DNA from: an uncultured Acidobacteriota bacterium
GTDB lineage: Bacteria; Acidobacteriota; Thermoanaerobaculia; Gp7-AA8
Length of the DNA stretch: 64,000 nt
Reading direction: 5' to 3'
NCBI GenBank assembly: GCA_963822445.1
Contig: CAWGHO010000001.1
Location: 992,001 to 1,056,000 of the forward strand
Both the position numbers and the translations under genes were made by a program. The notes beneath the pieces are model-generated. The model was not told the DNA's origin. It saw nothing but the letters and a program-made list of their open reading frames with translations, and ran no database searches. The stretch's first letter is position 1. Every line of letters starts with the position of its first letter. Positions 5,581 to 8,849 of the stretch are shown piece after piece.

Positions 5581-5701
5581 CGAGGGGCCTCCGGCGGGCG
5601 GCCCCGGGCCGCCGCGCTGGTTGTGCCTTCTGCCGGGATCGCGCTGGATGCGCGAATCGCGTTCACGCCAACACTAACGCAGCGGCCCGGGGCCGCCCGC
5701 C
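5581..5701. repeat. REP-like long palindrome interrupted by IS110 (remaining right-arm bases at 7241-7254)
   Basis: Left arm cgaggggcctccggcgggcggccccgggccg; its complement is split into ..cggcccggggccgcccgCC (to 5701) and CCggaggcctctcg (7241-7254). Confidence 0.85.
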
Positions 5702-5711
5702 TATAGCTTGT

Positions 5712-5955
5712 CCGGCCGTCTCTCCGCTTCTCCCTCAGCCCTCAGAGAAGTACCCGTTGGGTGGCAATCGGGAGAATCGGGTTCAGGCGGCGCGATACTG
5801 AGAGGAAGGGTTCGTCCCGCTACGAATTCCGCCCGTGTTCGGATCGACGAATCCCTCCGGACTTTCGAGCGGGACGAAGTGCTTTGGCCCGAAACGCATT
5901 CTCAGATGCTGTCGGAGCACGACTCGACTATAGGCCTTGCGCGCGGCCAAAGCCA
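5712..5955 (+). ncRNA. Predicted IS110 bridge RNA (target-binding loop about 5811-5878, donor-binding loop about 5881-5953)
   Basis: Stem ttcgtcccgct/agcgggacgaa encloses ccgcccg (left target) and cctccgg (reverse complement of core+right target); stem gctttggcc/ggccaaagc encloses ctcagatg (left donor) and ctatagg (reverse complement of core+right donor); 5' end approximate. Confidence 0.82.
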
Positions 5956-5973
5956 ACCCGAAGGGAGGGTGTG

Positions 5974-7218
5974 ATGAGCGAGTTCGAGTTTGGGGCGTTG
6001 GTGGGACTGGATTGGGGTGACACATCGCACGAGGTGGCTCTTTGGGACGAGCAGCAGCAGACGTGCACGAACGAGCGCATCGAGCACACGCCTGCGGCTC
6101 TGCGCGCATGGATCGAAGCGCTGCAGGCGCGCTTCGGCGGGGCACCGATCGCCGTGGCCATCGAGCAGTCCCGCGGCGCGGTCTTCGACGCGCTCAGCGG
6201 CTATCCGTTCGTCACGTTGTATCCGATCAACCCACGCAGTGCAGCCCGGTATCGTGAGGCGTTTCATCCGAGCCTTTCGAAAGACGATCCGACCGACGCG
6301 GCGTCCTTGCTCGACCTGCTCCGTAAGCACCGCAACGAGCTGCGCCCGTTCATCGCCGACGACGCTTCTACGCGGCTGCTGCGGCTTCTGACCGAGGATC
6401 GGCGGGAGCTCGTCGATCAGAGGACGCAACACGTCCAACGCATGACCGATCGGCTCAAGACGTACTACCCGCAGGCGCTCCGGTGGGCCGGCGCGTTGAT
6501 TACGGCCCAGGCCTGTGACTTCCTCGAACGCTGGCCGACGCTCGAGGCCATCCAAAGGGCTCGGCCGTCCGCGATACGGAGGTTCTATGCGGGTCATCAT
6601 CACGCGGCCGCGTGGATCGACCAGAGGCTCGCCGAGATCCGTTCAGAGGTCGCGTTCCACGACGACCAGGTCACCACTGACGCTGCCGTGCTGCTGATCG
6701 GAAGCGAGGTTGCGCAGATCCGGGCCCTCAACACGAGCATCGCCACGTACGACCAGAAGATCTCGGCGGCGTTCGCCGCCCACCAGGACGCGTCGATCTT
6801 CGCGAGCTTCCCTGGCGCCGGCCAACAGCTCGCGCCGCGGCTCGCCGCCGCCTTCGGGACCGATCGCAAGCGCTTCGGCAGCGCCGTCAACGTCGCCACC
6901 CGAAGCGGCATCGCCCCGGTTCTCCGCCGGAGCGGCAAAACGGCGGTCGTGCACATGCGCTGGGCTTGTCCGAAGTTCCTGCGTCAGACGTTCCATGAGT
7001 ACGCGCGAGTCTCGATCGGTCAGTCCGAATGGGCTCGAGCCTTCTACAAGCAGCAACGCGCGCGCGGACACAGCCACCACGAGGCTATCCGCACGCTCGC
7101 TTACCGCTGGATCCGCGTCCTTTACGCCTGCTGGAACAATCGCACCGTCTACGACGAAGCTCTCTATCTGCGGCAGCTCGCCACCCGAGGCTCAACCCTC
7201 GCCACAGCTGCTGCCTGA
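5974..7218 (+). CDS. IS110-family transposase/recombinase (DEDD RuvC-like + Transposase_20 domains)
   Basis: GGAGGG RBS then ATG at 5974; GLDWG, AIEQSRG, KDDPTDA, FPGAG, SGIAPVLRRSG, LRQTFHEYA motifs. Confidence 0.93.
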   Translation: MSEFEFGALVGLDWGDTSHEVALWDEQQQTCTNERIEHTPAALRAWIEALQARFGGAPIAVAIEQSRGAVFDALSGYPFVTLYPINPRSAARYREAFHPSLSKDDPTDAASLLDLLRKHRNELRPFIADDASTRLLRLLTEDRRELVDQRTQHVQRMTDRLKTYYPQALRWAGALITAQACDFLERWPTLEAIQRARPSAIRRFYAGHHHAAAWIDQRLAEIRSEVAFHDDQVTTDAAVLLIGSEVAQIRALNTSIATYDQKISAAFAAHQDASIFASFPGAGQQLAPRLAAAFGTDRKRFGSAVNVATRSGIAPVLRRSGKTAVVHMRWACPKFLRQTFHEYARVSIGQSEWARAFYKQQRARGHSHHEAIRTLAYRWIRVLYACWNNRTVYDEALYLRQLATRGSTLATAAA

Positions 7219-7219
7219 C

Positions 7220-7225
7220 TTGACA
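7220..7225 (+). promoter_or_regulatory. -35 box TTGACA in IS right end; pairs with TATAGC (5702-5707) at 17-bp spacing in the circular form
   Basis: Joined ends read TTGACA-ggaaggctcagatgtCC-TATAGC. Confidence 0.8.
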
Positions 7226-7232
7226 GGAAGGC

Positions 7233-8849
7233 TCAGATGTCCGGAGGCCTCTCGTCGTTCCCGTTCGCGTACGCCACGTGATGGGCGCCGGCAGCGACGT
7301 TCGTCCAACCGCGAGCTTCGAGCAATGCCCGCCGCGGCTTGTCGTTGTTCCGGACGATGTAGACCCGTGGATTGGCTGCGGCGAGCGAGCGCTCGAAGTA
7401 CGGCAGCGGCTTGAGCGGCGACGCGGGATTGGTCGTGAACTTCTCGTAGCGACGCACGAGGTAATTGCTGGTCATCTCGCTCGCGTCTTCGGTCACGACC
7501 ACGATCGGCCTCTGGAGATAAAACGCCATCGATCCGGTGAAGGCCTCGACGCCGATGATCTCCGTGTCCGGACGCACGTGCGGCGCGAGTCTCGCCACGA
7601 ACGAGCGCGTCGAGCGCCGTTCGCCGATCGCCTTCATCAGCGGATTGGTGATCAGCGGCATGAGCAGCACGGGCAACGACAGCGCGATCAGCACCAGCTC
7701 TTTCCGTTTCGCGAAAAGCGCGACCAGACCACCCAGCGCGAAGGCGCCGCCGAGGAAGAGCGCGGTGTCGTCGGCGACCGCGGCGATCTCCGGCTTCATC
7801 TTCGTCCGATGAAACACGAACGGCGCGACGAGCAGGATGCCGCCGAAGATGGCGAACACGATCGCCGCCGCGCGCGTCCGCGCCTCTTCCCAGATGCGCG
7901 CGATCACCAGCGCGATGGCTGGCATCAGCGGCAGGATGTACTGCGGCCGCTTCGACTGCGAGATCGAGAAAAAGACCAGCGGAATGGCGATCCAGAGCGC
8001 GAGAAACAGCAGGTCCCGCCGCTTCAGCGAGCGCCAGCTGAAGATCGCCACGAGCGACCAGGGCATCGCCCCGGCGAGCAGATACGGCAGGAAGTACCAG
8101 GGCGGTCCGGTGCGCTGCAGCTCTTTCGTGGCCATGCGCGTGGCGGTCTCGGTCACCAGCACGTAGTGCAGAAACTCAGGCACGACCTGGGTCACGCCCC
8201 ACAGCCACGGCGCGATAACCGCGGCGAACAAAACGATCCCGAGAATCGGGAAGAGCACGCGCACCGCTCGCTGAATGAGCGCGTACGGAATGACCACGAA
8301 CAGCACCAGCACGAACGTGACCGGGCCCTTGGTAATCATGGCCAGGCCCATCGCCGCCCAGGCCAGAATCGACCATCGCGAGTTACGCTCTTCGATCGCG
8401 AAGTAAAACGCGACCAGCGCGACGGTGCAGAAGAACATCAGCGCGCTGTCGAAGATCACCGTCCGGGCGAAAGCAACGGTCAGCGGCATCGCCAGGAACG
8501 TGATCGCCGCGATGTACGGCGCGTCTCCACCCCACACGCGCCGCGCGAACCAGAAAATCACCGCACCTGTGGCAATCGTGAAGAGGTACGCCGGCAACCG
8601 CGCCGCGACTTCCGTAGGTCCGAGGACCTCCATCGCCGCGGCTTCGGCCGCGAAATAGACCACGGGCTTATCGAGATACGGCAGCCCGTTGAGACGCGGC
8701 ATGACGTAGTCGTTCGTCTCCGCCATCTCCCGCGCCACTTCCGCGTTGCGGCCTTCATCGGCGTCGAGAAGCGGAAAGCCGCCGAGGTGAATCGCGAGGG
8801 CGATCACCGCGGCGGCTGTCCAGAATTTGAGGAGAGGTGAAGCGGTCAA
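7233..8849 (-). CDS. ArnT/GT83-like (PMT_2) membrane glycosyltransferase
   Basis: DADEGRNAEVAREM, YLDKP, KGP, SKRPQYILP, many TM segments; TTG start overlapping upstream TGA. Confidence 0.85.
   Translation of the reverse strand: MTASPLLKFWTAAAVIALAIHLGGFPLLDADEGRNAEVAREMAETNDYVMPRLNGLPYLDKPVVYFAAEAAAMEVLGPTEVAARLPAYLFTIATGAVIFWFARRVWGGDAPYIAAITFLAMPLTVAFARTVIFDSALMFFCTVALVAFYFAIEERNSRWSILAWAAMGLAMITKGPVTFVLVLFVVIPYALIQRAVRVLFPILGIVLFAAVIAPWLWGVTQVVPEFLHYVLVTETATRMATKELQRTGPPWYFLPYLLAGAMPWSLVAIFSWRSLKRRDLLFLALWIAIPLVFFSISQSKRPQYILPLMPAIALVIARIWEEARTRAAAIVFAIFGGILLVAPFVFHRTKMKPEIAAVADDTALFLGGAFALGGLVALFAKRKELVLIALSLPVLLMPLITNPLMKAIGERRSTRSFVARLAPHVRPDTEIIGVEAFTGSMAFYLQRPIVVVTEDASEMTSNYLVRRYEKFTTNPASPLKPLPYFERSLAAANPRVYIVRNNDKPRRALLEARGWTNVAAGAHHVAYANGNDERPPDI

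Follow-up and report, generated by a model that had tools for sequence, protein, structure and literature searches.

Insertion sequences of the IS110 family encode transposases that are defined by two Pfam domains, PF01548 and PF02371. Bridge RNAs were described in 2024, and the targeting of repetitive extragenic palindromic (REP) sequences by IS110 elements has been known for longer. Here we analysed a 64,000-nucleotide stretch of DNA from an uncultured Acidobacteriota bacterium (GTDB lineage Thermoanaerobaculia, Gp7-AA8; GenBank assembly GCA_963822445.1, contig CAWGHO010000001.1, positions 992,001 to 1,056,000 of the forward strand), which is called the window below and whose numbering is used throughout unless a genome position is indicated. 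At 5702-7242, on the plus strand, it carries an IS110-family insertion sequence of 1541 bp with a CC core dinucleotide and a predicted bridge RNA in its left end. Our reading of the sequence and of the analyses reported here, to which we give a probability of roughly 0.9, is that this is a probably active insertion sequence of the IS110 group that works like IS621.

IS621 of Escherichia coli is an IS110-group bridge recombinase with a 177-nt bridge RNA, which is encoded in a long left end with the target loop preceding the donor loop. Its left guides have the top-strand sense, its right guides are antisense and include the core, its target is a repetitive palindrome, and its recombinase carries DEDD and Ser residues (PMC11208160, PMC11208158, PMC13626964). 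The core takes part in all four guide pairings, and pairing of both core strands is described as strongly preferred (PMC11208160). The second core letter, a T that is read by the protein main chain, is almost invariant in IS621 and related orthologues (PMC11208158). The descriptions of IS621 also include a rule for handshake guides (PMC11208158), with a wild-type tally of one pair before exchange and three pairs after it (PMC13626964), and a promoter that is split across the joined ends (PMC11208158, PMC11208160). ISCro4 (IS622) of Citrobacter rodentium follows the same guide and handshake scheme, uses CT or GT cores and has been tested in human cells (10.1101/2025.05.14.653916). The IS1111 group with its seekRNAs shares the recombinase family and the guide-RNA principle, but its RNA lies in a long right end and its elements have sub-terminal inverted repeats of 7-17 bp (PMC11208160). 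A 2026 preprint on ISPpu10 of Pseudomonas putida describes an IS110 element whose insertion target is a single repeated intergenic REP sequence with a GC-rich stem-loop on its left side, and reports dual recognition, in which this DNA structure contributes to site choice alongside the RNA (10.64898/2026.03.19.712850). For bridge RNAs at large, a 2026 preprint predicts the guides of 32,190 bridge RNAs with 86 models (10.64898/2026.10.21.760802).

At the left junction of the element in the window, the sequence ccgcccg (5693-5699) is followed by CC (5700-5701), and the element opens with tatag at 5702. At the right junction, ctcagatgt (7232-7240) is followed by CC (7241-7242) and then by ggagg (7243-7247). 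The two junctions share CC and nothing else, which sets the length of the core at exactly 2 nt. The span 5702-7242 counts one CC copy inside the element (7241-7242), while the other copy, at 5700-5701, represents the left core dinucleotide and the predicted crossover point. Removal of 5702-7242 restores a palindrome, as a preliminary description of this DNA had claimed: in a comparison by eye, the upstream arm at 5581-5612 and the joined site, once reverse-complemented, differed at a single position. The left end of the element measures 272 nt and its right end continues for 24 nt after the stop codon of the recombinase gene, which is the layout of the IS110 group.

These boundaries recur elsewhere in the genome. 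The assembly (6.0 Mb in three contigs) contains nine full-length copies with 96-100% identity and one rearranged copy, and all ten are found at the same point of the same repeat, where g[c/g]gcccg-CC precedes the element and ggagg follows it. The nine full-length copies share the same boundaries and have CC at both junctions (9/9), the left CC is the same in 10/10 occupied sites, and all 41 empty sites have a single CC. The claim of an IS110 element with a CC core is thereby upheld. All nine full-length copies (9/9) keep the 414-aa gene intact, and in every one of them the synonymous codon differences equal or exceed the non-synonymous ones (for example 16 versus 4, and 22 versus 16). By hand count, 83 alignment columns are variable over the 1541 bp, none of which falls within 5805-5942, the region that holds both loops of the predicted RNA. 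According to the preliminary description, identical loops in copies at unrelated sites would speak against guidance by RNA. In the copies of this genome the loops are identical, and so are the sites. When the genome was scanned with the bridge-RNA model described below, only the ten known copies were found and no further relatives, and a search of a plasmid collection with the element returned only three short partial matches of 70-77% identity.

The predicted bridge RNA has a conserved body at 5806-5958 (plus strand, as are all features of the element given here), which is supported by a covariance model, by compensatory changes and by the absence of variable sites in 5805-5942 among nine copies. 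This body comprises a target-binding loop module (5809-5880) and a donor-binding loop module (5881-5953). The stems that enclose the two internal loops, 5811-5821/5868-5878 and 5881-5889/5945-5953, are perfect complements and are present in the single-sequence fold as well as in the alignment fold.

Each of the two loops carries two guide words. In the target loop, the left target guide (LTG) ccgcccg (5829-5835) has the same sense as the left target at 5693-5699, and the right target guide (RTG) cctccgg (5854-5860) is the reverse complement of CC plus ggagg (7241-7247). In the donor loop, the left donor guide (LDG) ctcagatg (5901-5908) has the same sense as 7232-7239 in the right end, and the right donor guide (RDG) ctatagg (5928-5934) is the reverse complement of CC plus tatag, that is, of the core and the first 5 nt of the element. 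Compared with IS621, the RTG is longer (7 nt versus 4 nt), while the LTG has 7 nt versus 9 nt including the core (PMC11208160). Both right guides include the core, whereas the left guides stop short of it: the two letters after the LTG (5836-5837) are ug, which do not match CC, and the letters after the LDG are cug, which do not match tCC. Two stem-enclosed loops, words for both target halves and both donor halves, and left guides that end before the core had all been proposed from the sequence beforehand, and recomputing the positions of the ends, stems and loop words gave the same values throughout. In a chance test, 20,000 dinucleotide-preserving shuffles of the left end were scored for the four guide words. 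Single words were held by 7.3%, 7.4%, 0.3% and 0.2% of the shuffles, and two words occurred together in 99 of the 20,000. Because none of the 20,000 shuffles held three or four words, chance can be excluded as the origin of the guide words.

The two letters that follow each right guide are predicted handshake guides. In the target loop these letters are ac (5861-5862), which are complementary to donor positions 7 and 6 (t7240 and g7239) and not to g5699 and c5698 of the target. In the donor loop they are cc (5935-5936); the c at 5935 can pair with g5699, which is target position 7, and the c at 5936 with donor g7239 before exchange. By the sequence, this would amount to one pair before top-strand exchange and three pairs after it, the same tally as for wild-type IS621.

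A -35 box, TTGACA, lies in the right end directly after the stop codon (7220-7225), and a -10-like box, TATAGC, lies at the start of the element (5702-5707), with its first 5 nt being the right-donor sequence. On joined ends these boxes are spaced by 17 nt, and the predicted junction promoter faces the bridge RNA and the gene. TATAG opens nearly all relatives, and of the 39 distinct right ends compared among relatives, 26 have TTGAC at this position. The boxes suggest that a promoter split over two ends is present here as it is in IS621, where the -35 box also belongs to the right end and the -10 box to the left end. Between the -10 box and the RNA body lies a leader (5702-5805), the length of which varies from ~50 to ~200 nt among relatives. 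A long hairpin in this 5' leader (5709-5797) appeared in the single-sequence fold but was rejected, since close relatives break many of its pairs and its covariation term is a penalty of +2.2. The left end, with this unsupported leader, is longer than that of IS621. A search of the left end against Rfam found no family. Weak matches at 5595-5699, with E values of 0.06-0.1 and scores well short of the gathering thresholds, are explained by the palindromic host repeat that lies there.

The recombinase gene (5974-7218) encodes 414 aa and is preceded by a ribosome-binding site, ggGAGGg, just upstream (5963-5969). The protein matches PF01548, the N-terminal RuvC-like DEDD domain, over the full profile (E 1.6e-28) and PF02371, the C-terminal Tnp domain, at E 1.3e-11. 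The candidate catalytic residues D13, E64, D105, D108 and S320 are invariant in 20/20 aligned relatives and are kept in 33-34 of 34 in a wider set, in which the exceptions are two truncated or frameshifted genes. By their spacing, D13, E64, D105 and D108 would correspond to D11, E60, D102 and D105 of IS621. S320 belongs to an RSG motif (kept in 33/34 and 20/20) and aligns with the SG serine of ISCro4. A phmmer search against PDB sequences placed ISCro4 first (E 1.8e-5), followed by IS621 (E 3e-4); as these weak matches reached the C-terminal domain only, the structure was predicted and searched by fold. The AlphaFold model (pLDDT 88.8, pTM 0.82) had chains of IS621 and ISCro4 as all of its top ten PDB matches (E 1.7e-12 to 3.4e-11), with TM scores of 0.74-0.76 by target at 17% identity. 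ISCro4 was among the top fold matches (TM 0.76 by target), and its identity to the protein is 17-18%. In the case of IS621, the identity of 17% applies to the fold alignment, and its PDB chain has 328 residues versus the 414 aa found here. Together, the Pfam domains and the predicted fold identify the encoded protein as a DEDD/Ser recombinase of the IS110 family, IS110 group, in agreement with its initial assignment.

A scan of one genome per species yielded 72 related loci. The closest relatives were found in three metagenome-assembled genomes of Thermoanaerobaculia, with 83-89% protein identity, and the next in Vicinamibacterales, with ~52%. A covariance model (R1), built from the window and the three close relatives with the guide loops left unpaired, gave matches at 61 of the 72 loci, with E values from 1e-39 to 6e-5, and every match lay just upstream of the gene and on its strand. 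In the alignment fitted to this model, 92.2% of the cells were paired compared with 66.9% in shuffles, and 34 of 40 pairs had changed on both sides, which means that these changes are compensatory. The covariation score was 0.595, as opposed to 0.175 in shuffles and less than 0.1 in controls with slid partners. None of 500 shuffles reached the observed values of pairing and covariation. With all matches of the RNA model upstream of the gene and a right end of only 24 nt after the stop codon, the element differs from those of the IS1111 group.

The relation between guides and flanks was measured in relatives whose ends had been located by the donor words only, after which the target loops were compared with the flanks so defined. 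For 27 distinct target loops, and with a match defined as 6 nt or more, the LTG matched its own flank in 18 of 27 cases versus 43 of 702 cross-pairings with the flanks of other elements, and the RTG did so in 24 of 27 cases versus 83 of 702. Two checks named in the preliminary description, a covariance model from homologous left ends and a comparison of guides with flanks, thus came out in favour of its reading. The LDG word was found downstream of the gene in most relatives, and the RDG word locates the left end. Among 26 distinct relatives, 17 had a donor-loop handshake guide whose first letter can pair with target position 7.

The core itself varies within this RNA family: we counted CC in 7 members, CT in 13, AT in 3, and AA, GT and TT in 1 each. 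The core implied by the RTG was the same as that located by the RDG in 24 of 26 cases, which means that both right guides follow the core among family members. The implied and located cores disagree in L032 (AT versus TT) and L034 (TC versus CT); the latter, a loop with an extra letter, is probably a problem of alignment register. At six loci from Colwellia-like gammaproteobacteria (L043, L044, L045, L056, L065 and L070), the left junction has CT before TATAG and the right junction has GT where the RTG expects CT, so that the two core copies differ in their first letter. This may be the footprint of a recombination between unequal cores, or the end may have been misplaced by one register.

Sequence and comparison carry our reading as far as family, fold, boundaries, site specificity, conserved structure, guides that follow the flanks, co-variation of the core, handshake letters and promoter boxes. 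For the reaction itself, the literature on IS621 and ISCro4 suggests the following order of events. The element would be excised as a circle, in which the joined ends would form the promoter (TTGACA, 17 nt, TATAGC) that transcribes first the bridge RNA of the left end and then the recombinase gene. The first loop would address the host site, with the LTG pairing to the bottom strand left of the core and the RTG to CC plus ggagg of the top strand. The second loop would address the junction of the circle, where the LDG matches the left donor and the RDG matches CC plus tatag. The two letters after each right guide would serve as handshake guides, contributing 1 bp before top-strand exchange and 3 after. 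A tetramer of the DEDD/Ser recombinase would then exchange the strands at the CC core, starting with the top strand, and, by analogy with IS621 and ISCro4, the RNA should be reprogrammable.

Several observations weigh against this reading. Both the LTG and the LDG read UG at the positions where CC is needed (0/2 core letters), though IS621 strongly prefers pairing of both core strands; its rule that the core is included in all four guide pairings (PMC11208160) does not hold for the left guides of this element. The whole left end folds barely better than its own shuffles (z = -1.56), and the structural support for the RNA therefore rests on the comparison with relatives and not on folding energy. 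Regarding the fold that had been proposed for the left end, the stems stand, since they recur in the alignment fold, while folding energy adds little. Good matches to the covariance model are missing from 11 of the 72 related loci, mostly on truncated contigs, and the pair counts come from an alignment that was fitted to the model and thus leans towards structure. In 9 of 27 relatives the match between LTG and flank is shorter than 6 nt, and in the genome itself 7 of the 10 occupied sites mismatch the LTG at one position (cggcccg versus ccgcccg).

The host sequence into which the element inserts is itself distinctive. The 12-nt joined site has 41 unoccupied occurrences in the genome, whereas 8.3 are expected from base composition, and 40 of these 41 fall in one family of GC-rich palindromic intergenic repeats that is present in ~50 arms. 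The sites mostly form inverted pairs ~110 bp apart, and each repeat unit therefore offers two landing sites. Immediately left of the core, the target side contains a GC hairpin (5682-5699; stem 5682-5687/5691-5696 with a 3-nt loop), which ends 3 nt before the core and the 3' arm of which is overlapped by the left target. Short, GC-rich, imperfectly palindromic and intergenic, with many copies and inverted pairs, the repeat fits the REP type, although it may be better described as a longer palindromic repeat unit of ~0.17-0.19 kb. The initial proposal of a host-repeat target is confirmed in the sense that insertion takes place at the foot of a GC hairpin, which belongs to a palindromic element repeated between genes. 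Within the window, an unoccupied copy of the 14-nt target with a perfect match lies on the minus strand at 5588-5601 (site C1:997587), in the other arm of the palindromic repeat and at a distance of ~100 bp from the inserted copy. If this site were filled as well, the result would be an inverted pair of elements.

The hairpin raises the possibility that the RNA words are necessary but that site choice also depends on the GC hairpin just left of the core, which would be read as DNA structure. Such dual recognition would extend the RNA-guided model rather than replace it. Hairpins of 6-9 bp with a 3-nt loop, ending 3 nt before the core, are found at 40/41 empty and 10/10 occupied sites, and variants in their arms keep pairing. 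By eye, the different upstream sequences of the close relatives L015 and L016, from other genomes, are also able to pair. A second determinant would also fit the tolerance of one LTG mismatch at 7 of the 10 occupied sites. By hand tally, without a statistical test, sites with a perfect LTG match are occupied in 3 of 11 cases and sites with one mismatch in 7 of 39, which is no clear difference. The convergent pairs of sites ~110 bp apart resemble those of ISPpu10, whose sites are often convergent pairs less than 200 bp apart (10.64898/2026.03.19.712850), and the hairpin at 50 of 51 sites here has its counterpart in the stem-loop at the ISPpu10 target. This likeness is one of description and not of compared sequences, and ISPpu10 duplicates CT and belongs to another host phylum (10.64898/2026.03.19.712850). 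On the other hand, the hairpin belongs to the repeat and would be found at all sites even if the element did not select for it, and more distant relatives such as the Vicinamibacterales group insert by flanks that, judged by eye and not folded, have no obvious GC hairpin. We regard such a contribution of DNA structure as possible, with the balance tipping somewhat against it.

Two loci in the genome deserve mention with regard to these repeats. The tenth copy (G000:C3:469301-470841; loci L010, L012 and L014) sits at a normal target site and has a 161-bp internal inversion (element positions 415-575) that breaks the recombinase gene, while the bridge-RNA region of this copy is unbroken and reaches the same score as in the other copies. 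At G000:C1:940357-941431 (L011 and L013), two right-end fragments (element positions 847-1541 and 1161-1541) are joined head to head, and next to the outer end of each stands the usual right-target sequence. The arrangement may have arisen by recombination between two copies that occupied both arms of one palindromic repeat.

The UG letters after the left guides could also mean that the guide RNA is a relic, in which these letters reflect decay and the present copies move poorly or owe their distribution to past activity. Such a view would fit the match of 0/2 core letters by LTG and LDG, the preference of IS621 for core pairing on both strands (PMC11208160), and the close relative L016, which has CC at the positions in question. 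However, all ten copies share UG while differing elsewhere by up to 3.6%, and the gene is intact in all nine full-length copies. Moreover, of 23 distinct relatives, 6 have an LTG that extends over both core letters, 8 one that covers a single letter and 9 one that covers neither; this set was restricted to loops with a secure register, after three cases of uncertain register and one with a truncated alignment had been set aside. Loss of core coverage by the left guide thus recurs in multi-copy elements. In the close relatives these letters are CC (L016), CA (L015) and UG (L017), and they appear to drift within the clade rather than to follow a fixed new rule. We therefore consider a relic RNA to be improbable, and an RNA-guided element of the IS621 kind remains our preferred reading.

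Finally, the words in the left end might be DNA binding sites of the recombinase, in the manner of sub-terminal repeats, with the protein alone reading the host repeat; this was already disfavoured and we judge it to be very improbable, for although donor words by nature repeat the element's own ends, the target words are copies of host DNA that differ between relatives in step with the host flank, the loop stems keep pairing through two-sided changes that such sites would not predict, and the protein has the fold of IS621 and ISCro4, whose recombinases are guided by RNA.

The right end of the element also touches a neighbouring gene. A minus-strand gene with a PMT_2/ArnT-like Pfam match ends inside the element (7233-7244), and its last two codons and stop (7233-7241) are supplied by the right end; the insertion therefore replaced the C-terminal tail of this gene.

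In the preliminary description the element was presented as a new programmable, RNA-guided ortholog with a CC core. The CC core and the four guides were borne out, whereas the novelty was overstated, given that computational work had already predicted bridge RNAs by the tens of thousands. Text searches of the literature found no paper that pairs the term 'CC core' with IS110, although supplementary tables (for example those of Durrant 2024) may list such cores. The element is a clear and fairly ordinary example of a bridge-RNA element, which is unusual mainly in having CC instead of the CT core of IS621. While ISCro4 has been tested in human cells, the present element is known from its sequence.

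More speculatively, the deep-branching clade to which this recombinase belongs (17% identity to IS621 and ~90 residues longer) may accept cores without T in the second position, as its natural CC and AA cores beside CT, AT and GT would suggest, and may not need its left guides to pair the core. We think this doubtful on present evidence. If true, it would mean that core pairing on the bottom strand is dispensable and that the choice of core is set by the two right guides only, and it would open a natural route to bridge editors that are free of the preference for T at position 9.

As a lead for tool development, CC, AA, AT and GT cores occur naturally in this clade, where both right guides change in step with them and the left guides often ignore the core. 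If confirmed by assay, this variety of cores and the left guides that skip them would matter for the limits on core choice in present bridge editors. The known mechanism is left as it was by both points, and the finding adds to existing knowledge. For the biology of the host, the window holds a bridge-RNA element of textbook quality in a poorly studied lineage, and with ten copies, ~40 sites still free for insertion and an address code that can be read it is a clean natural system for the spread of an insertion sequence within repeats.

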